Source: a virus. From it: a stretch of 64,000 nt of DNA. The number at the start of each line of letters is the position of its first letter. The first letter of the stretch is position 1. The stretch covers positions 32,858 through 96,857 of IMG/VR virus record IMGVR_UViG_3300044675_001894. One strand, 5' to 3'. Of this stretch, positions 8,461 to 46,172 are shown piece after piece. The notes beneath the pieces were generated by a model, which worked only from the letters and a program-made list of their open reading frames with translations, did not search any database and had not been told where the DNA came from. The translations under genes and the position numbers were made by a program.

Positions 8461-8930
8461 AACCCTTGACAAACGCCAAAACGCCTCAGACGCACCACAA
8501 TGCGTTCTCAGAGGAGGAGGGAGGGATGTAAGGGGTCAAGGCGGGCAGTGGTACAAAGTACCCTCAGAGAGGCTCTCGTACGCCTACGAATAGGGCTATG
8601 AGCCTTGCTGGGTAAGGGTTTGCGGGGTATGGGTAGGTTACGAAGTACTCGCCACAGCGCCCCAATTGCTATCCACTGCACACTCGCTCCATATCGGCAC
8701 CTGCACGCAACACAGAGCCTCCTAGGCACCTCTCCTGCCATCCTGCGGTATTCATTGATCAATTGAATTCTGTGGGTATTCATGCCTCCTCTCTCCTGTA
8801 TCTCCTCCTCCATCCGATGGATGGCTGGTCGTTGGGGGCGCCCAATTCCAGCCCTGTCCCCGCCGTCCCGAGGCTCCAGCCCATGCTGGGCAAGGCTCAA
8901 AAGAATTCTCAGGAATTGTTTAATTGGGGG

Positions 8931-8961
8931 TTGACAGATGTACCCCATCTGTGCGTTTAAT
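8931..8961 (+). promoter_or_regulatory. candidate early sigma70-type promoter with an internal inverted repeat
   Basis: TTGACA at 8931-8936 and TTTAAT at 8956-8961 (long 19 nt spacer); ACAGATG-N5-CATCTGT overlaps it. Confidence 0.35.
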
Positions 8962-9216
8962 GGGGGTGGAGGGGGATGCGTCCCCCGCCTCGGTTCCTTG
9001 ACAAGTGGCAGGTACGGCACGCAGGCTTCGCCCTGCGCATTTTGCGTTCCTGCCCTCAGAATCAAACATGGTTCAAAATTCCTCAGCGTCACGGGCTGGC
9101 TTCGGCTGGCTCGTGGCGCTCAATGAGGGCTGGAGGCATTCCCCCTGCTTCAGCCCTGATTGAGCGCACAGCGCTCCATTGGCACACAGCCAATGCAGTC
9201 CTGAGGAGGACACACC

Positions 9217-10194
9217 ATGGATATTCAACTATCAACACTCAATCCTGTGGAACACGATTTGCTGTACATGGAGCGCCTACGGACAGCGTCCAAAGCGAAC
9301 TACCAGTACCGAATCACCAGCCACTACTTGATCAGTGCCTATGGCAAGGAGTTGCGTTGGAGCAATGGCTACGGAAGCCGTGACAGCGTTGCTGTCGTGG
9401 ACTACCGCACCGATCCAATGCCCACCGAATATGCACAAGCACGTCTCATGGAGTTGTACGGCGAAACTGCCGAGGCAATGTTCAATGACGGCGTGGTCGG
9501 CATTTACGGCTCACTGCCAACCCGTGAGGCTGAACGCTTCACTGAGGCTCGTATCGCAATGGAGGATGCACGGCGTGACCTGCGTGAGTGTGACACCGAA
9601 TATGACAGCCGTCCTTGGAGTCGTTACTTCTTGGTCACGTCATCGGATGGGCACATTCACTCCAGCACACAGTGCTCCACCTGCAATAAGGGCGTCAATG
9701 ACACTGAGTTTGCACTCGTGCCTTACCTCAGCGGATCCAGTGCCGATGTTGCGGTTGCCGATCTCGGATCGGCGCTGTGCTCGGTCTGCTTCCCTGATGC
9801 TCCCGTGGAGTCACGTGAGCAGGTCAAGATCAGCGCCAGCGTGGCGTTGACACTTGCCGAGCAGGGCGTGGAGGCATTCCAGCAAGCCCGAGCCAAGGCT
9901 CGTGCGAACGCTGTGAAGCGTGCTCAGGAGCGTTGCGAAGGCAGTGGTCAACCAACGGTCAGAAGTGATCGCTGGCATCATTGCCCAGTATGCGGATATG
10001 GACAGCGTGCGGACGGTAAGTCCCGTGCACATCGCCGTCCTCGCTTCTACGCCACCAAAGAGGTCGGCTACGACACCAAATACTGGAACGGCACCACGTG
10101 GGCGCCATCAACCAAGAAGGTTGACCTACTCACTCGTGAGCAGGCTGAAGCCGTCTTGGTGGCTCACGGTGGCTCACGAGTCATTCAGGATTGA
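9217..10194 (+). CDS. early hypothetical protein with zinc-binding motifs
   Basis: HIH...CSTC, CSVC, CPVC; strong SD. Confidence 0.8.
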   Translation: MDIQLSTLNPVEHDLLYMERLRTASKANYQYRITSHYLISAYGKELRWSNGYGSRDSVAVVDYRTDPMPTEYAQARLMELYGETAEAMFNDGVVGIYGSLPTREAERFTEARIAMEDARRDLRECDTEYDSRPWSRYFLVTSSDGHIHSSTQCSTCNKGVNDTEFALVPYLSGSSADVAVADLGSALCSVCFPDAPVESREQVKISASVALTLAEQGVEAFQQARAKARANAVKRAQERCEGSGQPTVRSDRWHHCPVCGYGQRADGKSRAHRRPRFYATKEVGYDTKYWNGTTWAPSTKKVDLLTREQAEAVLVAHGGSRVIQD

Positions 10195-10200
10195 TCATTC

Positions 10201-10259
10201 CCCCAGCGCCTAGGGCGTGCCCGTTCAATCGGGACTGGGGACTACTGGCACCCGCCAGT
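10201..10259 (+). ncRNA. tRNA-like (T-loop) intergenic RNA element, copy 1
   Basis: CCCCAG/CTGGGG closing stem, CGCC/GGCG hairpin, CCCG-TTCAAT-CGGG arm; covaries with 12098-12156. Confidence 0.55.
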
Positions 10260-10284
10260 TACAACGACCTGAGGAGGTCAAGCC

Positions 10285-10971
10285 ATGAATACAGAAGCAA
10301 TCTACGACAAGGTGCAGGCAATCCTTGATCGTGCCAATCACCCGAACACGCCACAAGCGGAAGCCGAGACGGCTCTCGCCATGGCACAACGGCTCATGAT
10401 GAAGCACGGTCTTGAAGAGTCCGCATTCGCCAAGGCTCAAGATCGTGACGAGAACATCGTTACCGATCAGATCCCAATCAGTGGTCAATGGCAACTTCGC
10501 CGTCTCGGTCTTGCTGGTGCAATCGCTAGTGCCAACTCTGTTGCCAACTACCGCTCCACATCGTGGGCGGATGGCAAGAAGTCGTTGGTGTTGGTGGTGT
10601 ACGGCACTGCTGGTGACATCTTCGCTGTCAAGACACTGTTTGCATCGGCAGACTTGCTCGCTTCTCGTGTGATCCCAAAGGGTGATCGGTCATTCCGCAA
10701 TGCGTGGTGGCTCGGATTCTCCTCGGGAGTGCGTGAGGTGTTGCGCAAGTCCAAGAACGAAGTGATCGCAGAGCAAGGTGCTGGCACTGGGCTGGTGCTC
10801 GCTGACAAGTTCAAGCGTGCAGACGCTGAGATGCGTTCAAAAGTCAAACTCAAGTCCAGTGGGTACTACAGGTACTCATCGGGTAACGGTTACAACGCTG
10901 GTCGTTCTGCTGGTCGTTCGTTCAACACTGGTGGCATCGGTAACGGTGTCGCTGGAGCGCTCGGACGATGA
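10285..10971 (+). CDS. DUF2786-domain protein
   Basis: KVQAILDRA.....AEAETALAMAQRLMMKHGL; GY.AGR C-terminus. Confidence 0.8.
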   Translation: MNTEAIYDKVQAILDRANHPNTPQAEAETALAMAQRLMMKHGLEESAFAKAQDRDENIVTDQIPISGQWQLRRLGLAGAIASANSVANYRSTSWADGKKSLVLVVYGTAGDIFAVKTLFASADLLASRVIPKGDRSFRNAWWLGFSSGVREVLRKSKNEVIAEQGAGTGLVLADKFKRADAEMRSKVKLKSSGYYRYSSGNGYNAGRSAGRSFNTGGIGNGVAGALGR

Positions 10972-11444
10972 GCATCCATGCATACATGGAGGTAGTGCGG
11001 GAGGGCGTTGCAAAGCGCTCTCCCAAAATGCCCGAACATCAAGCCACGGTGTATGCAATTGAGAATGTGGTGGAGCGTCACTTGCCATCGCAAGTGATCG
11101 CTACCAAGAACGCATTCGCTTGGCTGGATCGTGTGTGTGAGACCGAAGGCTGGGACACGCCGATGGTTGATCGCATCCGATCCACCAAGTGGGCAGGTGT
11201 CGCTAGTGCCGAAGGCAATGTCATCGGCATCAGTGGCTCCAGCACGACAGCACTGGTACTGGCTCACGAACTCGCTCACATCGTGTGTGGCGAGCGTGGT
11301 CACAATGAGTGTTGGCGTAATGCGTTCGTGAACATCGTCCGAGATCACATCTCGGTACAGCATGCGTCACTCCTGCATACCTTGTACGAGCGTTTCCAAC
11401 TTCAATCAGGTCAGTGGAGGCTGACCGACACATCACGAGTGTGA
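10968..11444 (+). CDS. HExxH metallopeptidase-like protein
   Basis: LAHELAH......GH; adjacent to DUF2786, a known pairing in Actinobacteria. Confidence 0.75.
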   Translation: MSIHAYMEVVREGVAKRSPKMPEHQATVYAIENVVERHLPSQVIATKNAFAWLDRVCETEGWDTPMVDRIRSTKWAGVASAEGNVIGISGSSTTALVLAHELAHIVCGERGHNECWRNAFVNIVRDHISVQHASLLHTLYERFQLQSGQWRLTDTSRV

Positions 11445-11509
11445 ACTCGTGGTGCTGTCATGGCTCATCGGCGCAAGTTGGTGAGTCATGACAGCATCAT
11501 CCGATGCTG
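11427..11509 (+). ncRNA. multi-hairpin intergenic RNA leader
   Basis: GUGA-capped hairpin, a 22 bp GCAA-capped stem with G-U pairs, and an overlapping third hairpin. Confidence 0.6.
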
Positions 11510-11535
11510 AATAAAGCGACCTGAGGAGGTCAACC

Positions 11536-12090
11536 ATGAAAACATCAGAGATCAAGCAGATCATTGCCAAGGATCCGAACGCCGTGTTTCGCATTGGCGG
11601 TCGTGGTCGGTACACGCACTACGGCTCAATCACAGAGATTAAAGAAAATGTCGTGGACACTTACAGCAGTTGGGGTCGCAAGACGGGCACCCGTGTCAAT
11701 GTGTTATTCACAGTGCGTTACGAGTACTTCACTAGTGGCACTGAGGCTCATTACGGCTACCCCGAGAAGTTGCCTTCAGTAACACTGGAGCGCAACACTT
11801 GGACTAAGCCACGTGACATTGAATGGCACGTGTCGGACTTCGGTCAGACCATTGAAGAATATGTGGTAACGACTGACGCCGAAGTGAAGGCTGACTGGCA
11901 GGCAAAGAAGGACAATGACAATGCCAAACAACAACTGATCAACCGAATTCTCAACGACTTCGGAATCGTGTTGAGTGTGGGTGATGAAGCCACTGACAAG
12001 CGCTGGGATCACCTAAACGATGAGTTGGACAGACTCAGCCTTGACACATTGAAAATGCTTGTACACAACTACACACCTTCACGGGTGTGA
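11536..12090 (+). CDS. early hypothetical protein
   Basis: 184 aa ORF with RBS hairpin. Confidence 0.8.
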   Translation: MKTSEIKQIIAKDPNAVFRIGGRGRYTHYGSITEIKENVVDTYSSWGRKTGTRVNVLFTVRYEYFTSGTEAHYGYPEKLPSVTLERNTWTKPRDIEWHVSDFGQTIEEYVVTTDAEVKADWQAKKDNDNAKQQLINRILNDFGIVLSVGDEATDKRWDHLNDELDRLSLDTLKMLVHNYTPSRV

Positions 12091-12097
12091 TTGGTTC

Positions 12098-12156
12098 CCC
12101 TAGCGCCTCGGGCGTGCCGATTCAATTCGGACTAGGGACTGTGAGCACTCGCTCAC
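12098..12156 (+). ncRNA. tRNA-like (T-loop) intergenic RNA element, copy 2
   Basis: CCCTAG/CTAGGG, CGCC/GGCG and CCGA-TTCAAT-TCGG. Confidence 0.55.
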
Positions 12157-12182
12157 TACAAAATACCTGAGGAGGTATAGCC

Positions 12183-12506
12183 ATGGCATATCAACTAACA
12201 GACTGGGATCTAGAGCAGATCACTGACACGCTGGACATGTATGAAGCGGGCACCGTGAGGCGGTACTCGGGTCGTGCGATGTACGGCGAGCAGTGTCTCG
12301 GCATCGTGACCGAAGATGTGGCATCAGCATTCATGATCCTCGGATCAGCACTCGCTGACTTGGGCAATGACGGTAACGCATTGACAAGAAAACTTCTTCG
12401 TGAAGTGCGCCAAGACAGCATGGGTCGTGACTCAGCCGTTGTCTACTTCCCATCCATCACAATGCCCGAGGGTTACGTGGAGGGTGACGAAGACAGCGAC
12501 AACTAG
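12183..12506 (+). CDS. early hypothetical protein
   Basis: YSGRAMYG..CLG and DSMGR...VYFP; RBS hairpin. Confidence 0.8.
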   Translation: MAYQLTDWDLEQITDTLDMYEAGTVRRYSGRAMYGEQCLGIVTEDVASAFMILGSALADLGNDGNALTRKLLREVRQDSMGRDSAVVYFPSITMPEGYVEGDEDSDN

Positions 12507-12520
12507 TCGTAAGTGGTAGT

Positions 12521-12603
12521 CGGGAGCATCACGGGTTCGCCCGTGATGCCCTCACAGTGCATCGGCGTTGTGTCGGTGCATTGTGAGGGCATACAATTGC
12601 CCG
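12521..12603 (+). ncRNA. multi-hairpin intergenic RNA leader
   Basis: GCATCACGGG-TTCG-CCCGTGATGC plus a 21 bp second stem and an overlapping third. Confidence 0.6.
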
Positions 12604-12632
12604 TTCAACTAATAAGACCTGAGGAGGTCACC

Positions 12633-12887
12633 ATGGATGCAACTATTCACAAAGTAACTGGGCTTCGGATTGAGAAGACTGGTGACTCACGACTCCACAC
12701 GATTGATCTCGTGATTGAGTACGAAGACTTGGCGTTCAGCCGTCCCCAGTGGGAGCAGGACAACGAGTCATTCGGTTACGCAAAGTTGGAGTCAACGATC
12801 ACGCTCTTCATCAGTGACACCGCTGATATTGAGACAGTGTTGTGGAAGGCGATCGCAGATCTCACTTCCGACCTTGCCAATGCGTGA
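12633..12887 (+). CDS. early hypothetical protein
   Basis: Start reassigned to the ATG after the RBS hairpin at 12616. Confidence 0.75.
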   Translation: MDATIHKVTGLRIEKTGDSRLHTIDLVIEYEDLAFSRPQWEQDNESFGYAKLESTITLFISDTADIETVLWKAIADLTSDLANA

Positions 12888-12897
12888 GTAATGAGCA

Positions 12898-12976
12898 ATG
12901 GGCAGTCATGGCGCAAGCCATGGCGTGCTCGGAGTGCACTGACCCCCATCGGTGCATTCCGAGGACGCAAGTCCAT
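12898..12976 (+). ncRNA. multi-hairpin intergenic RNA leader
   Basis: GTCATGGC-GCAA-GCCATGGC, long stem, GGAC-GCAA-GTCC; close sibling of 13746-13818. Confidence 0.6.
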
Positions 12977-13015
12977 ACTTAGTAATTCAAAACAGAATCT
13001 GAGGAGGTTCTTACC

Positions 13016-13741
13016 ATGGGTGCAATAACACCAAAACAGCAAGCGTTCATTCGCACAATGCTCCTTGAGCGTGCTTCAACACTCGGTCTTGATGAGGCTG
13101 GCGTTGATCAGTACATCATTGATCAGAAGGTGAATGAGTTGTCAAACAAGTCAGCGTCCACCGTCATTGATGCGATCAAACGCATTGAAATCAAGCGTGT
13201 GGGCACCGATCACTTGCCGAAGGCAGAGCGCACCATTGTCAACAAGTATGCGAACCCGTGCACATTGTGCGGTCATCCTGTACCTGTTGGTGCTGGTCAT
13301 GCATTGCTTATCGGTGGCAAGTGGCAGACGTACCACGCACTCGGTCAGTGCTCCAGCGAAACTGCTGTAGCGCCCGAGCGTGTGAGCAATGAGTTGTTCG
13401 GGACATTGCCTGATGGCTTCTATGCAATGAAGTCAACGGGCACCAATGACCTCGTGTTCTATGCGGTGAAGACAAACAAGGGTTTTCATGATCCGAAGTT
13501 CAAGGGTCACCGCTCCATCTACCTGATCGTAGGTGGACACAAGGACGAGCGACTCACTGGTGAGCGTGGCGTGAACGCTGTGAAGCGTCTCGTAGCGCTC
13601 AACGATGCAGAGCGTGTGCAGGCACGAGCACTGTACGGTCAAGAGATCGGACGGTGTGGTGTGTGCGGGCGTCATCTCACTGATGAGGCAACACGCAAGC
13701 GAGGCATCGGCAATGACTGCGCAAGCAGGTTGGGCATCTAG
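13016..13741 (+). CDS. DUF6011-like zinc-finger protein
   Basis: C-terminal CGVCGRHLTD..TRKRGIG.DCA. Confidence 0.75.
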   Translation: MGAITPKQQAFIRTMLLERASTLGLDEAGVDQYIIDQKVNELSNKSASTVIDAIKRIEIKRVGTDHLPKAERTIVNKYANPCTLCGHPVPVGAGHALLIGGKWQTYHALGQCSSETAVAPERVSNELFGTLPDGFYAMKSTGTNDLVFYAVKTNKGFHDPKFKGHRSIYLIVGGHKDERLTGERGVNAVKRLVALNDAERVQARALYGQEIGRCGVCGRHLTDEATRKRGIGNDCASRLGI

Positions 13742-13745
13742 CCCA

Positions 13746-13818
13746 AGGATGTCATGGCGTAAGCCATGGCGTCCTCACAACACATCGGGCAACTGGTGTG
13801 CTGTGAGGACGCAAGTCC
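13746..13818 (+). ncRNA. multi-hairpin intergenic RNA leader
   Basis: GTCATGGC-GTAA-GCCATGGC, long stem, GGAC-GCAA-GTCC. Confidence 0.6.
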
Positions 13819-13848
13819 ACTAACAATTACCTGAGGAGGTAACAGACC

Positions 13849-15381
13849 ATGAATACACAACTAGGAGAACTAAGCGCATTGCTTAGTCGTGTTGAGCGTG
13901 TAGCGCCAGCCATCACGGCTGACCCTGCGCTCCATGCGTTAAGCAGTGCTCACGATGGCGAAGTCGCTGTAGACCTCGCCCAACCTCTCTTCCCATTCCA
14001 GCGTGCTGGTGTGGCGTATGCACTCAAGCAACGCCGTGCCATCATCGGAGATGAGATGGGGCTGGGTAAGACTCCACAAGGCATCGCAGTAGCAGTGCAC
14101 GCACACAAGGAGGGACACAAAGTCCTCGTTGTAGTGCCACCATCGCTCCGCATCAACTGGCAACGCTCCTTCGCACTGTTCGCACCGTGGCTCTCAACAG
14201 CCATTGTGTCGGGCAACAAGGTGACGGCTCTTCCCAAAGCAGATGTGCTCATTATTGGTGACAGCATCATTGACACTTGGTCAGTGAGGCTCGTCAATGC
14301 CAAGTTCGGCGCACTGATCGTGGACGAGGCACACCGTGCGAAGAATGCAAAGTCAGGACGCACCAAGGGCATCGCACATATCGCAAAGTCAATCCCGACT
14401 GAAGGATATGTGACGCTCTTGAGCGGAACGATCATCGTGAACCGTCCGAACGAATTGGTCTCGCCATTGTCAATCATTGGCAGGCTTGACCGAGTGTTCG
14501 GTGGTAAGTCAGCGTTCCTGTTTCGTTACTGTGACCCGATCCACAACGGCTGGGGTTACGTGTATAACGGAGCAACCAACACCACTGAGTTGAACGACAA
14601 ATTGCGTGGCACCTGCTACGTGAGGCGTAACAAGTCAGATGTGTTGAAGGAACTACCTGCCAAGCGCCGTGCTCAGGTTGCTACCGAGATCAGCAACACC
14701 GATCTCGTGGCATATCGCTCTGCCGAAGAGAACTTCCGTGACTTCGTCATCGCCAATGGCGGTGTTGAAGCGTGGCAGAGAGCCTCTAAGGCTGAAGTGA
14801 TTACACGCTTGAATGCATTGCGCAGGTTGCTAGGCATCGCCAAGATCCCGTATGTGGTTGAGCACGTAGAAGAACTTGTCGCACAAGGCGAGAAGGTCAT
14901 CGTGTTCGCACACCACAAAGAAGTCATCGCACAACTAAGCAGTGCTCTTCATGAGCACGGCGTAGTCAAGGTGGCTGGCGGACTCAGCGATGTGCAGAAG
15001 CAGGAAGCAGTTGACGCATTCCAAACTGGTAGCGCCAAGGTGTTCATCGGACAATTTCAATCCGCTGGTGTTGGTCTCACATTGACCGCATCATCGCATG
15101 TCGTGTTCGCTGAATTGCCATGGGAGCCAGCCTCCGCAGTACAAGCCGAAGACCGTGCGCATCGCATCGGTCAAGACAACGCTGTGGTGGCATGGTGGCT
15201 ACTGGCTGTAGACAACACAAGCGAGATCCCAACAGTGGACGATCGCATGTGGGCGCTACTGAATGCCAAACACGAGACAGTCTCGGCTGTCTTGACGGGG
15301 CATGGTGAGGACATGGGCGCCGAGGGTGCGACAAGCATCACTCAATCGCTCATTGAAGGCATCATCGGCAACGGAGGTTGA
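13849..15381 (+). CDS. SNF2-family (HARP-like) helicase
   Basis: DEMGLGKT, DEAH, LSGT, GVGLTLT and QAEDRAHRIGQ. Confidence 0.92.
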   Translation: MNTQLGELSALLSRVERVAPAITADPALHALSSAHDGEVAVDLAQPLFPFQRAGVAYALKQRRAIIGDEMGLGKTPQGIAVAVHAHKEGHKVLVVVPPSLRINWQRSFALFAPWLSTAIVSGNKVTALPKADVLIIGDSIIDTWSVRLVNAKFGALIVDEAHRAKNAKSGRTKGIAHIAKSIPTEGYVTLLSGTIIVNRPNELVSPLSIIGRLDRVFGGKSAFLFRYCDPIHNGWGYVYNGATNTTELNDKLRGTCYVRRNKSDVLKELPAKRRAQVATEISNTDLVAYRSAEENFRDFVIANGGVEAWQRASKAEVITRLNALRRLLGIAKIPYVVEHVEELVAQGEKVIVFAHHKEVIAQLSSALHEHGVVKVAGGLSDVQKQEAVDAFQTGSAKVFIGQFQSAGVGLTLTASSHVVFAELPWEPASAVQAEDRAHRIGQDNAVVAWWLLAVDNTSEIPTVDDRMWALLNAKHETVSAVLTGHGEDMGAEGATSITQSLIEGIIGNGG

Positions 15382-15459
15382 TCGTGGGCGCTCGGCGCCT
15401 CATGGTCGGCGCCAGTAGCGACAGACGATGTGTTCTTGTCCTCACGAGAACCCATCACA

Positions 15460-15543
15460 GTGCATCACGGGCGCAAGCCCGTGGTGTTCTGACAGTACAT
15501 TGGCACACCGCTTGTGTACTGTCAGAACATCACCCGATGTTCA
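15460..15543 (+). ncRNA. multi-hairpin intergenic RNA leader
   Basis: GCATCACGGGC-GCAA-GCCCGTGGTGT, long stem, GAACATC/GATGTTC. Confidence 0.6.
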
Positions 15544-15567
15544 AGTAACAACGCCTGAGGAGGCACC

Positions 15568-15804
15568 ATGAAAGTAAGTCAAGCAATCAAGTTATTGAGT
15601 GAGATCAACCCTGACGAAGAGATCGCTATCTCTTGGTGGGAATCAAACTTGTTCACTGACAAAGACAACAACCAACTATTGGCAGACTCAGAACTGTGGC
15701 TCAAGGCAGTCGCAGTGTTTGACGCCAACGGTGGTTACGACAGCGTCAACCAATTGGTATGGGATTACCTCAATTACGACATCAATCAAGAAGGAGAGTT
15801 TTAA
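15568..15804 (+). CDS. early hypothetical protein
   Basis: Acidic 78 aa ORF with RBS hairpin. Confidence 0.75.
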   Translation: MKVSQAIKLLSEINPDEEIAISWWESNLFTDKDNNQLLADSELWLKAVAVFDANGGYDSVNQLVWDYLNYDINQEGEF

Positions 15805-16047
15805 ATGGACATTTCAGAAGCAATTCAAACAATGATCACTAATCGCCACCTCAAAGAACACGAAATAGTGGTGAGGTGGTCGTGGTGCGACATCCAAGCG
15901 ATGTACCCACAGTGGACAGAAGACCAATGCCGAGATGCCCTGTATGAAGTTGACGATTATGTACACGAGAGAATCGTGGAACTCGGCAACGATGTGTTGA
16001 AGCAACTTGTATACGAAATCGTTGAAACGAAATGGGAGAGTGAATAA
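15805..16047 (+). CDS. early hypothetical protein
   Basis: AGGAG SD; coupled. Confidence 0.7.
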   Translation: MDISEAIQTMITNRHLKEHEIVVRWSWCDIQAMYPQWTEDQCRDALYEVDDYVHERIVELGNDVLKQLVYEIVETKWESE

Positions 16048-16352
16048 TGAACAACATCGGAACACCAATCGGTGCATGGGCAATCATCAAGTGGTATGAC
16101 TCAGGCATTGAGAGCGAGGTATTCATCTCGTTCGGTACATGGAATGAGAACGAGTGGAACGGCGAGTTTGACTCGTTCGGGAATCGTGACGATGAGGTCT
16201 TCTTCTACTGCGAAGGTGGAGAAGAGGAACTCAAGTCGCTCATGGGTGACAGCAAGGAAGACTTCGTGGTCATCAACTACGCAGTTGACTACAGCATCCC
16301 GCTCGTGCTCGCTGACATGGACGAGCCAGTATTCAAGGAGGAAGCACAATGA
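16047..16352 (+). CDS. early hypothetical protein
   Basis: Acidic; TAATG coupling. Confidence 0.7.
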   Translation: MNNIGTPIGAWAIIKWYDSGIESEVFISFGTWNENEWNGEFDSFGNRDDEVFFYCEGGEEELKSLMGDSKEDFVVINYAVDYSIPLVLADMDEPVFKEEAQ

Positions 16353-16612
16353 TCGGTACAAAGAGTTGGCTACTGACAGGTTGTTATGTAGACGGCACAC
16401 ACGGCGTCTACAGCGCCATGGAAGCGTGCAGGATCGCACGAGAACTCGGATGGGATGGGCAACAGCCCACAGACATTGAGGACTCGTGGTACCAAGAAGA
16501 GGTAGCCACGGAATGGCTGAACGAAATGATCGCTGATGATGGTCACTCGTTCGGCTGGCATGACGCCGAATACTTCTACATGCCACAAGCATGGTGGGAG
16601 GATGTCGCTTGA
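16349..16612 (+). CDS. early hypothetical protein
   Basis: ATGA coupling; AGGAGG SD. Confidence 0.7.
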   Translation: MIGTKSWLLTGCYVDGTHGVYSAMEACRIARELGWDGQQPTDIEDSWYQEEVATEWLNEMIADDGHSFGWHDAEYFYMPQAWWEDVA

Positions 16613-16697
16613 TCGGGAGCATCACGGGCTACGGCTCGTGGTGTCCTCACAGCCCATAAATCATATTTGTGGGTTGTGAGGGCACTCAGTGCCCGAT
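16612..16697 (+). ncRNA. multi-hairpin intergenic RNA leader
   Basis: ATCGGG...CCCGAT closing stem; UACG-capped hairpin; long stem. Confidence 0.6.
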
Positions 16698-16731
16698 AAA
16701 TTAATTAATCCCTATGACCTGAGGAGGTCTT

Positions 16732-17091
16732 ATGTTAGAGCCAGTAATCACGATGACCGTTGAGCAATGGGAAGAGCAATACGAACCCTTTGTCAATCAC
16801 CTAGATGCAGATGCATCATGGGCAACCGATGACGCCAACGGCATCATGTTTGAAACGTACGGTGCCGAAGTTGATTATGTGTTTGCCCGACCGCTCAACC
16901 ACACATGGACATATGTGGATGGCGAAGAGGGCACATACATTATTGCTGGACGCCATCTCGTAAATCGCATCGGTTACTTCGTAACTGCGGTGCCATGGAA
17001 GGATGACTTCAACACCAAGTATGAAATTCAAGTAAGCGCCAATGATGATTATTACCAAACAGTGTTAGACCTTGAAGGAGGTAGCAAATGA
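16732..17091 (+). CDS. early hypothetical protein
   Basis: FETYG.E and VNRIGYFVT; RBS hairpin. Confidence 0.8.
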   Translation: MLEPVITMTVEQWEEQYEPFVNHLDADASWATDDANGIMFETYGAEVDYVFARPLNHTWTYVDGEEGTYIIAGRHLVNRIGYFVTAVPWKDDFNTKYEIQVSANDDYYQTVLDLEGGSK

Positions 17092-17309
17092 GCAAGATCA
17101 GTTTTGACAATGTGGATGAAGGTACCGAGGTAGAAGTACTCGTGCAGATATCCCCGAGGGAGACATTCCCGTACACAGGGATCGTTTCACGAGTCAGTGA
17201 CACCGAGTTGTCAATGTGGACTACAGACAGTCCGAACGACACTTACGAGACCGAGCGTGAGATTGATATTCCAATCGCAAAGATCCTTGAACTGGACATC
17301 TTTGAATAA
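17088..17309 (+). CDS. early hypothetical protein
   Basis: Coupled; AGGAGG SD. Confidence 0.7.
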   Translation: MSKISFDNVDEGTEVEVLVQISPRETFPYTGIVSRVSDTELSMWTTDSPNDTYETEREIDIPIAKILELDIFE

Positions 17310-17472
17310 TGAATCGTTAAGCGAGTCCTGAGAGGCTTGTACGAAGGGTGGCATCAGCCTCGGCTGGTGTCATCCCGTGGATGCTCTGCTTCCTATAGGG
17401 GGTCAGCGGAGCGTCCACGGGGTGAGGCAACTGTGCAACACCTGTACATAACAATGATCTGAGGAGGTCAAA

Positions 17473-20176: not shown

Positions 20177-20565
20177 CCGAAGCGCTGGTGGGGGAGCAAT
20201 CCCCCACCTATGCTCGGGACACCGAATACACAGCCTTACCATTCCCCGAAGTGATGGCGGAATGGAGATCGCAAGCCAAGTGCAAAGATGAAGACGGATC
20301 ACTGTGGTTTGCCAGCAAGCCGAAAGGCATTAACAACTCATCCATCAAAGGAAGAATTGTTAACAGCCGTAGGAAGCGGGCACAGCGTATTTGTAAAGTG
20401 TGTCCTGTTCAGTATGAATGCCTGCGCTACGCCGTCTTGAATGACTTCAGGGATGGCATATGGGCTGGTTATGAAATGGATGACCTCACACATACAGACC
20501 GTCAAGTACTTCGTCAGCGTATTAAACGAGCAGAACGAAAGTTAAGTAAGACTGTCAATAAGTGA
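20173..20565 (+). CDS. whiB: WhiB-family transcription factor
   Basis: W...A.C...ICKVCPVQYECL.YA.....GIWAG. Confidence 0.85.
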   Translation: MTEALVGEQSPTYARDTEYTALPFPEVMAEWRSQAKCKDEDGSLWFASKPKGINNSSIKGRIVNSRRKRAQRICKVCPVQYECLRYAVLNDFRDGIWAGYEMDDLTHTDRQVLRQRIKRAERKLSKTVNK

Positions 20566-22574: not shown

Positions 22575-22991
22575 TTAAGGCTGAATCAACCTAAACTTAA
22601 GCATCTCTAAATCAATCTCTTTGTCACCCATCTTAGGAATCTCTTCAATATTTATTTTATTAATCTCTGCTGACTCTGCTTCCGCACACTCATTACAGCG
22701 ACAACCTTGTCTGTAACGCACCCAGGTGCCATGTTGACGCATGATGCTCGCTTTAGGATGCTCTACAGTGAGCGCTGTTCGCTCTTGTGGTGTGAGACCG
22801 CCCCACATTCCCCACTTCTCATCCACCCCATCGTCTAAACATTCTTTCCACACAGGACATTGGCGACATACTGCTTTAGAAATTATGTAGTAATTATCTG
22901 GTACGTCAGTGTCTAGCGGTGGGTACCAAAGGTCAATGGCTCGGTCTTTGCAAAGTGCGTCAACACGCCAGTCCTCTGCGAACTGTGGCAA
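22575..22991 (-). CDS. whiB: WhiB-family transcription factor with extra C-terminal zinc motif
   Basis: ALC...VCRQCPVWKECL....GMWGGLTPQER; HGT...Y..GCRC.EC. Confidence 0.88.
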   Translation of the reverse strand: MPQFAEDWRVDALCKDRAIDLWYPPLDTDVPDNYYIISKAVCRQCPVWKECLDDGVDEKWGMWGGLTPQERTALTVEHPKASIMRQHGTWVRYRQGCRCNECAEAESAEINKINIEEIPKMGDKEIDLEMLKFRLIQP

Positions 22992-43108: not shown

Positions 43109-43740
43109 TAGTGCTCCAACCTGTAGTCAGCACCAGTTACTCCCATAATGAAACATGATTGTTTGATAATGGAATGCACTCGTGGACTGTACAGAGTTGG
43201 TAACTTGTCGGGGTTGATTTCTGTTGTAAAGATTGTTGGCAACTGCATGTCATAGCGAGACTCAATCATGCTTGACACAGTCTTGGACATGTACTCAGTT
43301 AATCGGTCGGCATTCAAGTTGTCAACAACAACGATGTCATAAATGCGGCGCATGTACTTAAGCAAGTTTGGATCGCCGTACATCTCAGGAAGTTCACCAT
43401 CATTGTTGCGTGAGTCGTGCACCATCTCAACAAAGATGTCGTAGGAGATAAACAAACCACTGAGTTCGTTCTTTGAAACAACTTCACGCAAAGCGGCTAC
43501 CGCCATGTGTGTTTTACCAAGACCTGTCTTGCCATGGATATACAAACCCATGCCGTCTTCCATACGCTTTTCAATATTGTTTGTCCACTTGATGACAGCA
43601 TCTTTGAATGCAGGAGAACCTTCGTTCTCGTCATAGTTTGCAAACGTGCTGTTCTTGTAGCGAGGTGGTATGCGCAGGTTACGAACCCGTTCTTCAACGG
43701 GGCGGTTGCGCCAGTACTTTGAACTCTTCCAGTCAGTCAT
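43108..43740 (-). CDS. DnaC/IstB-like AAA+ helicase loader
   Basis: IPPRY...F and GKTGLGKTH; R....PTIFTT. Confidence 0.88.
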   Translation of the reverse strand: MTDWKSSKYWRNRPVEERVRNLRIPPRYKNSTFANYDENEGSPAFKDAVIKWTNNIEKRMEDGMGLYIHGKTGLGKTHMAVAALREVVSKNELSGLFISYDIFVEMVHDSRNNDGELPEMYGDPNLLKYMRRIYDIVVVDNLNADRLTEYMSKTVSSMIESRYDMQLPTIFTTEINPDKLPTLYSPRVHSIIKQSCFIMGVTGADYRLEH

Positions 43741-43847
43741 GCTTTTCCATTTTGTGAGGGGGTAACGATGATACCGCACACCTGTGGTCTAAAAACGTAA
43801 CTGCATCTAAAAAGTAAAGATCACAGCAAATACAATGTATATACGAT

Positions 43848-44255
43848 CTACTCTTCGGTAAGTCTTGGGTCAATTGAGATTGAGGTCGGCTGATCGTCTT
43901 CTTTGACATAGTTTTCCTTTGCGTATTTATCCAAGTTTGCTAAGAATGCTCTCCACGGCGCAACCTCCACTGGTAACGGTCTCCGTGTTATCTCTTTTAC
44001 AAACGCCATGATCATTGCACGTATCTGGTCAGTTGTAAAGCCCTTGTCGGTGAGTTTCTTGAAACCCTTCATCAGAGCGGGACCATTCACTGGGGCGGTG
44101 ATTCTGTCCATGGTCTCGGTCGGGAGACTGGCACGGAAGAAATACACCAAGTTTCCTCGGGAGTCTTGTCGGGTTTGTTTTGGGGCGGGTTCTTTTTTGT
44201 CGGGGTCTTCACCTAAGCCGACGCCCCAGTCGTCAGAAAGTTTCTTCATCTTCAA
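43848..44255 (-). CDS. hypothetical replication-associated protein
   Basis: 135 aa ORF between the initiator and the loader. Confidence 0.65.
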   Translation of the reverse strand: MKMKKLSDDWGVGLGEDPDKKEPAPKQTRQDSRGNLVYFFRASLPTETMDRITAPVNGPALMKGFKKLTDKGFTTDQIRAMIMAFVKEITRRPLPVEVAPWRAFLANLDKYAKENYVKEDDQPTSISIDPRLTEE

Positions 44256-44718
44256 GCCTCTGATCTACTTGTGTTGAAATTTTCCCTTTCTTGTTAAATT
44301 TACTCTTGTTATATACTCTTGATTGGGTGTCACCCGTGACACTACTAGTGGTGTCTCCCGTGACACTACCTAGTGTCTCCATGGACACTACTAGGGGTGA
44401 CTCATGTGACACTACTGGGTTGTTAAAATTGACGTAATAGCGGTTCGTCAAGTTCTTGTTGTTGCGGGTCACACGGTGTTGTTTAACGATCAAGCCAATC
44501 TCTTCTAGGCGCTTCATAGAGCGTATTACGGTTCGGCGGTCACAGCCCAACTGGTCAGCAATGTGCTGGTAGGAGGTTGTCAGTTCCTGCGTATCTGGAT
44601 GGAGGTACTGAAGCATGTGGTTCAGTACTGCATGCGAGATGTAGTCCGTAGAGATGTATGGAAGCACCCATCTCGGGACAGGTAAAAAGGGTCCGCTCAA
44701 CTTATTGTTTCGTGCCAT
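44233..44718 (-). CDS. HTH replication initiator (lambda O-like)
   Basis: SYQHIADQLGCDRRTVIRSMKRLEEIGLI, N.Y; internal iterons; SD CCTGAGGAG at 44723-44731. Confidence 0.8.
   Translation of the reverse strand: MARNNKLSGPFLPVPRWVLPYISTDYISHAVLNHMLQYLHPDTQELTTSYQHIADQLGCDRRTVIRSMKRLEEIGLIVKQHRVTRNNKNLTNRYYVNFNNPVVSHESPLVVSMETLGSVTGDTTSSVTGDTQSRVYNKSKFNKKGKISTQVDQRLEDEETF
44327..44418. repeat. iteron array, probable replication origin
   Basis: Four GACACTAC cores at 44338, 44362, 44384 and 44408, next to an AT-rich tract at 44276-44325. Confidence 0.75.
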
Positions 44719-44765
44719 ACTGCTCCTCAGGTTGTTATCTAGGGTCGCCATGCTACACTCTCGCT

Positions 44766-44901
44766 AGTCGCTTTAGCACTTCCCTGATCGGGTGCTAAAG
44801 TGGGCATAGTGTTGGGGGGAGGGCGACCTCCTCAGGAAATACAGAGCAAGGGTCTTTCCCTCCTTTCTGCCCTTGCCCTTGTTAACGGCCCTCCCTTCAA
44901 C
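44766..44901 (+). ncRNA. putative anti-Shine-Dalgarno small RNA
   Basis: Extended -10 TGcTACACT at 44751-44759; 13 bp and 14 bp stems with G-U pairs; exposed GACCTCCTCAGG and CCTCCTTTCT. Confidence 0.6.
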
Positions 44902-44916
44902 CGCTAAACTATGTTC

Positions 44917-45081
44917 ATGGCATCTAAAAAAGAAGTATGGGATAAACCCAATCCAAAGAAGAAGTCAACCAAGTTGACACCTGACCAGAAGTCAGAAGCA
45001 AAGGCTCGTGCTAAAGCCGCTGGTCGTCCATATCCAAACCTTGTTGACAACATGGCTGTCTCCAAGAAAGGTAAGAAATAA
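44917..45081 (+). CDS. small basic protein (54 aa)
   Basis: Hand-translated MASKKEVWDKPNPK...GRPYPNLVDN; leaderless after TAAACT. Confidence 0.75.
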   Translation: MASKKEVWDKPNPKKKSTKLTPDQKSEAKARAKAAGRPYPNLVDNMAVSKKGKK

Positions 45082-45350
45082 TGGCTGAGAGTAAGAAAGA
45101 CCCACGACTTGCACGTGCAGGTGTGTCTGGTTTCAACAAACCAAAAGCAACACCTGACCACCCAACTAAGTCGCATGTTGTTGTTGCTAAAGAAGGCGAC
45201 AACGTTAAGACCATTCGCTTTGGGCAACAGGGCGTCAAAGGTTCACCTGATGGTTCCGCACGCAATGCTTCGTTCAAGGCACGTCATGCCAAGAACATCT
45301 CTAAAGGAAAGATGTCTGCCGCCTATTGGGCTGACAAGGTGAAGTGGTAA
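45081..45350 (+). CDS. small basic protein (DUF6321-like)
   Basis: KSHVV, IRFGQQG, R.SFKARH and SAAYWA.KVKW. Confidence 0.75.
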   Translation: MAESKKDPRLARAGVSGFNKPKATPDHPTKSHVVVAKEGDNVKTIRFGQQGVKGSPDGSARNASFKARHAKNISKGKMSAAYWADKVKW

Positions 45351-46172
45351 CTAAATAGTTGCACCGAAGCCAAACAACTGTTTGACTTCTTCCACGTTTG
45401 CAGGACGGCTCATAATCACTCCGCTAGGGAATGTTGCCGTAAGCATGCAGGTGTCATAAGAATTAGTAACTGCTCGGTCGTTTTGAGCACTACTTACAAC
45501 ATGGAATGTACCTAGATCAATAGGTGGCAAGATGTCTACTTCTTCTACTTCGGTATCTTCAATAATTGGGTCTGGCATCGTAACGTCATTGAGTATTGCA
45601 TCAACGATTTGTTCTTTAGTCATGGTCGTTCCTACTTGGATACCTTGAGCCTTTGCGTTCTTGCGAAGGACACCAATAGACATTGACAACATTTCATCAC
45701 GGCTAAACGGTTCAATCTCAACTTCTTCAGTTGGTACTGGTGCAGTCTTTTCTTCGTGCGTTATGTCAACAACAATTGGGACCAATCCATTAGTCAAGTC
45801 CAGGATTGTTACACCAGCGTCAGCGGCATCAAAACAAATCTCTTCCATTTCAGGTATCAATGTGTCATCCCAAAGAAGCAAAAGAGTTCCTTTTGTCTTT
45901 GACAAGTAGTGGATGATGTCTCTCGCTGGGTTTGCCTCTAGTCGTTCAACTGAAGCCTTTTCAATGAACTCCGCAGGAGCCTTACCATTGTGGGTAAGCA
46001 TGAAATTAACTTCCATGTCAATCAGCCAGTTGATAACTCGTGACTCTGACTCAGATGGTTTGGCACCACATGTAACAATAAAGTCGTTGTCTACACCTAG
46101 TTCATTAAGAGCATCTTCAATGATGTTCTTGCTAGTTCTACCTGTTCCTAAAATCCCATATTTCTTTAGCAT
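45351..46172 (-). CDS. hypothetical protein
   Basis: 273 aa; AGGAG SD; possible HeH/Rho-N-like motif near LRKNAK...MTKEQIVDAI. Confidence 0.7.
   Translation of the reverse strand: MLKKYGILGTGRTSKNIIEDALNELGVDNDFIVTCGAKPSESESRVINWLIDMEVNFMLTHNGKAPAEFIEKASVERLEANPARDIIHYLSKTKGTLLLLWDDTLIPEMEEICFDAADAGVTILDLTNGLVPIVVDITHEEKTAPVPTEEVEIEPFSRDEMLSMSIGVLRKNAKAQGIQVGTTMTKEQIVDAILNDVTMPDPIIEDTEVEEVDILPPIDLGTFHVVSSAQNDRAVTNSYDTCMLTATFPSGVIMSRPANVEEVKQLFGFGATI

Follow-up and report, generated by a model that had tools for sequence, protein, structure and literature searches.

The question raised by this locus is whether a short gap between two divergent sets of phage genes contains a gene for a small RNA and, if so, which messages that RNA might control. 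The window (the whole 64,000-nt stretch of DNA analyzed here, to which all positions refer) comprises bases 32858-96857 of a 96,857-bp IMG/VR virus record. The element under study (44766 to about 44906, plus strand) is a noncoding, structured segment of ~140 nt. It sits within a 190-nt gap between a minus-strand replication module, which lies to its left and begins at ATG 44718, and two small plus-strand genes (phrog_34011 and phrog_7595; 44917-45350), after which come minus-strand baseplate genes. The replication module contains an O/DnaD-like winged-helix initiator (44233-44718, minus strand), a DnaC-like loader, and a DnaB helicase. Inside the initiator gene there are four iterons at a spacing of 23 nt, each a GTGTC-N6-GACAC-type palindrome (44327-44415), and an A/T-rich stretch with short repeats (44289-44321) adjoins them. 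The layout of this internal, origin-like region (44289-44415) resembles that of lambda, in which ori lies within the O gene.

The phage GenBank collection contained no near relative; the only distant matches in that collection involved the 89-aa small gene and came from Roseobacter and other phages. A tRNA/tmRNA search found none, and no lysogeny genes were seen in the annotated parts of the phage. The phage carries two WhiB-family genes (20263-20478, plus strand; 22770-22970, minus strand). In addition, many operon-first genes have a TAnAnT hexamer 5 to 7 nt before the start codon (6 to 7 nt at 867, 7001, 7733, 8137, 51633, 61566, and 44917) and no Shine-Dalgarno (SD) sequence; these genes are probably leaderless, and the phage seems to use two translation modes, leaderless and SD-led. 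Leaderless mRNAs are common in Actinobacteria (PMC12274833), and the two WhiB genes together with the many leaderless genes point to an actinobacterial host. A search of bacterial genomes with the phage WhiB returned only 20-residue matches in Saccharibacteria MAGs, which we consider spurious because those genomes have neither WhiB nor a matching 16S tail pattern. The region's sequence is present in four wastewater sequencing runs from one study, which are probably DNA runs.

Structure and conservation of the element

The plus strand of the element folds with a free energy of −57.7 kcal/mol (z −3.2), which was matched by 0 of 200 shuffles. The first-pass annotation of this DNA had proposed a 13-bp hairpin and a 14-bp stem here, and its stems, both loops, and an extended −10 motif all lie where it placed them. 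In the MFE fold, a 5′ hairpin spans 44768-44803 and is kept in relatives despite changed sequence. Its proposed position (44769-44802) is confirmed, whereas the proposed count of 13 bp becomes 11 clean pairs, or up to 14 in the MFE fold. The outer stem pairs 44811-44824 with 44888-44901 (14 bp, including two G·U pairs), and a 4-bp extension (44807-44810 with 44903-44906) lengthens its arms to 44807-44824 and 44888-44906. An internal loop contains seed 1 (GACCUCCUCAGG, DNA GACCTCCTCAGG; 44825-44836), and the segment ACAGAG (44841-44846) lies at the base of the middle and inner stem. The inner stem (GCAAGGG/CCCTTGC, 44846-44852 with 44870-44876) and its apical loop of 15 to 17 nt together occupy 44846-44876, and the loop carries seed 2 (CCUCCUUUCU, DNA CCTCCTTTCT; 44859-44868). 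Seed 2 is predicted to be essentially always open (unpaired probability 0.96 to 1.0). Seed 1 has a predicted mean unpaired probability of about 0.5, since it can fold into a 3-bp mini-hairpin whose loop is CCUC and which leaves it half-closed.

No ORF is conserved at the element on either strand. The frame of a plus-strand 35-codon ORF (44800-44907) is broken by 1-nt indels among relatives, and the ATG (44807) of a candidate minus-strand leader peptide of 22 codons is lost in relatives L004-L009. Nor is there a conserved minus-strand ORF that uses the two seed motifs as ordinary SD sequences, a reading that the first-pass annotation had set against its own. A cmscan of positions 43500-46000 on both strands (E up to 10) returned only a chance mir-263 match elsewhere, and the element matches neither the C4 nor the 6C (RF01066) covariance model of Rfam.

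We searched IMG/VR with the initiator protein and a DNA pattern and found about 20 element-bearing contigs with initiators 65% to 100% identical; the element occurs in them as 15 distinct sequences. The structure is paired in 89% of the cells of the alignment (A1), compared with 40 to 55% after sliding of the partners. Both sides have changed in 14 pairs, a number reached by 0 of 500 shuffles. Across the 15 distinct relatives, every cell of the outer stem is paired (100%), and six of its pairs covary. The inner stem has four covarying pairs within its 7 bp and takes the forms CAAGGG/CCCTTG, CGGGGG/CCCCCG, CAGGGG/CCCCTG, TGGGGG/CCCCCA, and CGCAGG/CCTGCG. The unpaired segments ACCTCCTCAGG (ACCUCCUCAGG), ACAGAG, and CCTCCTTTC (CCUCCUUUC) are invariant in the 15 sequences while stems and linkers vary; the conservation in related genomes on which the first-pass annotation had made its seeds depend is thus present for both cores. 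A second pattern scan, made via seed 2 so as to include variants with an altered seed 1, gave only chance hits among the matches listed.

The departures from Watson-Crick pairing identify the strand. All 21 such cells in the outer and inner stems are G·U on the plus strand and none is A·C; they fall at seven positions, in different lineages. The 4-bp extension of the outer stem behaves in the same way, and the 5′ hairpin has G·U pairs on the plus strand only (44770/801, 44775/796, and 44776/795). That the G·U pairs of the stems work on one strand alone was already proposed from the single sequence, and on the minus strand these cells would indeed be A·C. Because single transitions of both kinds are equally reachable, the pattern is good evidence for selection on a plus-strand RNA. 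The fold lies far beyond chance, since it is conserved with covariation in relatives, and from this comparison of sequences we consider it very probable that a conserved plus-strand RNA exists.

Promoters and linkage to the initiator gene

The element lies behind a candidate promoter, P1, with an extended −10 (TGcTACACT, 44751-44759, plus strand) and a predicted start at about 44766, 2 to 3 nt before the 5′ hairpin. The sequence TGnTACACT is conserved in all element-bearing relatives, all of which also have a purine 7 nt downstream, and P1 fits the TAnAnT −10 of the phage's leaderless genes. This predicted layout is typical of a stable small RNA. Comparison of relatives supports the proposal of a structured plus-strand noncoding RNA behind this candidate promoter, with two open anti-SD-like segments that do not vary.

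On the minus strand, the initiator start region (44718-44755) contains a candidate −10 (TAGCAT, 44755-44750), the ribosome binding site (RBS) CCUGAGGAG (44731-44723), and ATG 44718. TAGCAT is likely the initiator promoter, placed back to back with P1: the TAGCAT hexamer on the minus strand and the TACACT hexamer of P1 on the plus strand overlap by 2 bp (44750-44759). With the predicted starts at about 44766 (plus) and about 44743 (minus), the RNA and the initiator mRNA would not overlap. Even distant lineages without the RNA conserve the block GTGTAnnnT, which may therefore have a further role in the initiator promoter or in regulating it.

At the other end of the element, a second promoter, P2 (44905-44919, plus strand), consists of the −10 hexamer TAAACT and a 6-nt spacer before the leaderless ATG (44917) of the small-gene pair. 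In relatives, the hexamer (TAAACT, TAAAAT, TACACT, or TACAAT) and its 6-nt distance to the ATG are kept while the letters of the spacer vary, which marks P2 as a leaderless promoter. The PHROG profile begins at residue 3 of the 44911 ORF. We found no plus-strand terminator after the element and no U-tract past the outer stem. Because the stem abuts P2 and no terminator was found, the transcript may read through into the small genes, or the RNA may be processed. In the L039/L069 clade another gene replaces the small genes, yet the element and the promoter that follows it are kept, which indicates that the element is tied to the initiator side and not to the downstream gene. One relative (L013 / L070, contig 3300008261_002026) is missing a stretch of 27 nt that covers the P2 hexamer and the outer stem's 3′ arm; the deletion lies between two TTTATGG repeats, so that it reflects either natural slippage or a collapsed assembly.

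Predicted partners and competing explanations

Ten early genes (9198-17472, plus strand) carry RBS hairpins of the form nnCU-GAGG-AGnn and are candidate targets. The motif CTGAGGAGG occurs in 10 copies, all on the plus strand (9201-17459) and each 5 to 11 nt before an ATG; its reverse complement has a single copy in the 96.9-kb genome, in the element. There are four perfect copies of CCTGAGGAGGTC, also on the plus strand, at 10268, 11520, 12618, and 16718 (the first-pass annotation gave positions 2 too low). When both seeds were scanned against both strands of the genome, eight of the nine best partners of seed 1 after its self-match were early RBSs (−23 to −26.5 kcal/mol; scan background −8.9 kcal/mol, sd 3.2). 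The early RBSs had been expected to be its top partners, and they are, with the limit that CCUCC pairs with any SD and the target list therefore follows partly from the design of the scan. Complementarity of seed 1 extends over 10 to 12 bp with the early genes, through their CUGAGGAGG tag, and over 9 bp with the initiator, whose RBS (44723-44731) contains the 9-nt match claimed for it. The initiator gene, which the first-pass annotation treated as secondary, may be the target that is conserved.

The same RBS tag occurs in four related genomes (G001, G002, G003, and G005). Genome G004, of a sister lineage, has 15 CTGAGGAGG sites, mostly gene RBSs, without the element RNA. A check for covariation between seed and RBS found no variation in the core of either partner, and copies within a genome differed in their RBS-hairpin flanks; only one seed flank has changed (G to A, L039 clade), and the RBSs show no matching change. 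The early SD sequences are caged in 4- to 7-bp hairpins with a GAGG loop, and because seed 1 can form a mirror hairpin with a CCUC loop, a loop-loop contact with the RBS hairpins is conceivable. Upstream of each early gene (9085-17470) there is also an extensive leader of several hairpins, at −43 to −66 kcal/mol for every 119 nt, and G001-G005 keep both the leaders and the caged SDs. A likeness between the loop of the element's 5′ hairpin and the early-leader hairpins (ATCGG) was too weak to use.

The scan of both genome strands with seed 2 gave no convincing phage partner; the best was a G-run at 8508, in a long early leader. The G-run lies in a stretch of ~700 nt without convincing genes that follows TTGACA at 8466 (8466-9200) and holds GGAGGAGGGAGGG and then an ATG-TAA start-stop mini-ORF (8510-8532). 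As the first-pass annotation suggested, seed 2 could instead have AGAAAGGAGG-led host mRNAs as its targets.

Our preferred reading, to which we assign a probability of roughly 45%, is base-pairing repression of CUGAGGAGG-tagged messages, those of the early genes and the initiator. A plus-strand noncoding RNA of ~140 nt would be transcribed from P1, back to back with the promoter of the initiator operon, and its long irregular hairpin would display two invariant, pyrimidine-rich single strands, ACCUCCUCAGG from the internal loop and CCUCCUUUC from the apical one. The displayed segments would most likely pair with SD regions and block 30S binding, with the CUGAGGAGG(U)-tagged messages (ten early genes and the neighbouring initiator gene) as preferred partners. 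Since the open segments mirror the early RBSs and copy the 16S tail, the RNA probably turns translation down, a function that we infer from sequence alone. Because the RNA gene adjoins the origin and the replication module, RNA dose would rise with replication, and the rising dose would bring early-gene shut-off, negative feedback on the initiator, or both.

Pairing repression of the tagged messages is consistent with the uniqueness of the anti-motif in the genome, with the lead of the early RBSs among seed 1 partners, and with the retention of the element next to the initiator where the downstream gene has been exchanged. It also has a precedent in the 6C sRNA, whose C-rich loops pair without a chaperone (PMC6486639). 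Several observations argue the other way: G004 has the early RBS tag without the RNA, the stem abuts P2 and no terminator was found, seed 1 is half-closed and the target SDs are themselves in 5- to 7-bp hairpins, and any CCUCC pairs with any SD.

The locus is occupied by another RNA in a sister lineage. In L023 and L024 (also L022), in which the initiator is about 50% identical, an unrelated 109-nt RNA lies between the same two promoters; this RNA (L023:3815-3985) ends with a 12-bp hairpin and a U-rich tail. The L023 RNA is predicted to pair over 13+3+8 bp with the SD and AUG of its own initiator, in a duplex of −35.3 kcal/mol (shuffles, −19.9 ± 3.8 kcal/mol; about 4 sd beyond), and it is not complementary to the early tag. 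On the initiator strand, the complementarity takes the form of a direct repeat of the start region. The corresponding L024 duplex is weaker, at −28.5 kcal/mol (z about −2.5), because of two or three changes without compensation. The more distant lineages L025 and L141 have a short gap and no RNA. This comparison suggests, as a lead and not as proof, that RNAs at the locus act on the initiator start region. For pairing repression of the tagged messages it counts on both sides, the L023 complementarity in favor and the uncompensated changes in the L024 start region against.

The sister lineage also bears on the first of the alternatives, in which the RNA would be a dedicated feedback on the initiator only, like plasmid copy-number RNAs, and the early-RBS matches would be a by-product of a shared SD tag. 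The constant linkage to the initiator and the back-to-back promoters fit such a role, as do the origin iterons about 350-440 nt away and the sister-lineage RNA, whose complementarity is with the start region of its own initiator rather than with the early tag. The element's seed, however, matches the initiator over 9 bp and the early genes over 10 to 12, and its invariant ACC pairs with GGU, which the initiator RBS does not have; the uncompensated L024 changes weigh against feedback on the initiator as well. We consider an initiator-only function unlikely.

Ranked next, and a little less probable, is a role in cis, with the element acting as a structured leader of a P1 mRNA for the small genes or modulating the overlapping leaderless P2. 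Such a role would agree with the absence of a detectable terminator, with the overlap between the stem extension and the P2 −10, and with the presence of a promoter directly after the stem in all relatives. The exchange of the downstream gene in the L039/L069 clade, with the element kept, does not favor it. Moreover, the small gene is served by a leaderless promoter of its own and lacks an SD for anti-SD loops to sequester, and the invariant open loops suggest a contact in trans.

Third in rank, and doubtful, is a decoy or sponge that mimics the 3′ tail of 16S rRNA. It would titrate a protein that recognizes the anti-SD, for example a host toxin that cleaves the anti-SD or a ribosome factor, or it would soak up SD-led host messages, whose bulk removal would favor the leaderless genes of the phage. 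The apical loop, fully open, equals what we take to be the last 9 to 11 nt of a mycobacterial-type 16S tail; seed 2 has no specific phage target, and many operon starts of the phage are leaderless. The CCUCCU anti-SD lies within the last 11 nt of 16S rRNA (PMC12274833), and actinobacterial MazF and RelE toxins that cut at the anti-SD are known (PMC12274833, PMC12620021). On the other hand, stoichiometric titration of mRNAs or ribosome factors would need very high RNA levels. We also considered a decoy for MazF-mt11 in particular and rejected it: the exact CACCU site is absent, and the loops have CCCUCC or UACCUCC. A combined reading, in which the CCUCCUUUCU loop acts as a global sponge or decoy while seed 1 shuts off the tagged early regulon and the initiator, is more doubtful again.

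Very improbable, finally, is a functional minus strand, either as a replication-operon leader with decoy SDs (for ribosome standby or as a 5′ stabilizer) or as the fossil RBS of a gene since lost: the motifs do read as strong SDs in gene orientation and the minus strand also folds stably (−54.6 kcal/mol, z −2.8), but every wobble position becomes an A·C mismatch, no start codon is suitably spaced (the sole ATG is not conserved), no conserved minus-strand promoter was found upstream of the element, and a fossil RBS would not stay invariant while the stems covary.

Implications and comparison with known systems

If pairing repression of the tagged messages is correct, its logic is simple and testable: one RNA matched to a private RBS tag of the early genes and the initiator. 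It would amount to RNA-based timing of phage gene expression in Actinobacteria, would link origin gene dosage to early-gene shut-off, and would provide a natural design for an anti-SD RNA, open to reuse as a tool. To our knowledge, regulatory RNAs of lytic phages, and especially of actinophages, are almost unknown, and we know of no Hfq in Actinobacteria.

Several known regulators share the position or the logic proposed for the element. CopA of R1 and RNAII of pMV158 are small structured RNAs beside an initiator gene that block its translation in a dose-dependent manner. Both are cis-antisense RNAs that overlap the rep leader, whereas the element is divergent, has no overlap with the initiator mRNA under the inferred promoters, and is complementary to the initiator over only 9 nt. 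The lambda OOP RNA is a short RNA transcribed away from the initiator gene (O), beside the origin region; its transcript overlaps the end of cII in antisense and stops at a terminator. The element recalls OOP by its position but has neither an overlapped gene nor a terminator. T4 shuts off its early messages at their SD regions by means of two phage-coded regulators, RegB and RegA; these are proteins, whereas the regulator proposed here is an RNA.

The closest analogies are with c4 and 6C. The c4 antisense RNA of phages P1 and P7 is, like the element, a phage-encoded structured RNA; its exposed loops pair with a target mRNA, and one of them occludes an RBS (PMC5320573). The c4 RNA is excised from a longer transcript and is not ended by a terminator of its own (PMC5320573). 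The element likewise has two open, invariant segments, with predicted RBS complementarity for seed 1 only. It differs from c4 in fold and host group and has no match to the Rfam model; c4 serves lysogenic immunity and has one target, whereas the element has about 11 putative target genes. The actinobacterial 6C/B11 sRNA (RF01066) shares with the element the host phylum and the C-rich loops, which in 6C need no chaperone to pair with several mRNAs at G-rich or SD regions (PMC6486639). 6C consists of two simple hairpins with C-rich apical loops, whereas the element presents an apical loop and an internal-loop seed within one long hairpin, the loop of its 5′ hairpin is not C-rich in all relatives, and, unlike 6C, it is borne by a phage. 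By analogy, we suggest that the element works like c4 and 6C while being homologous to neither.
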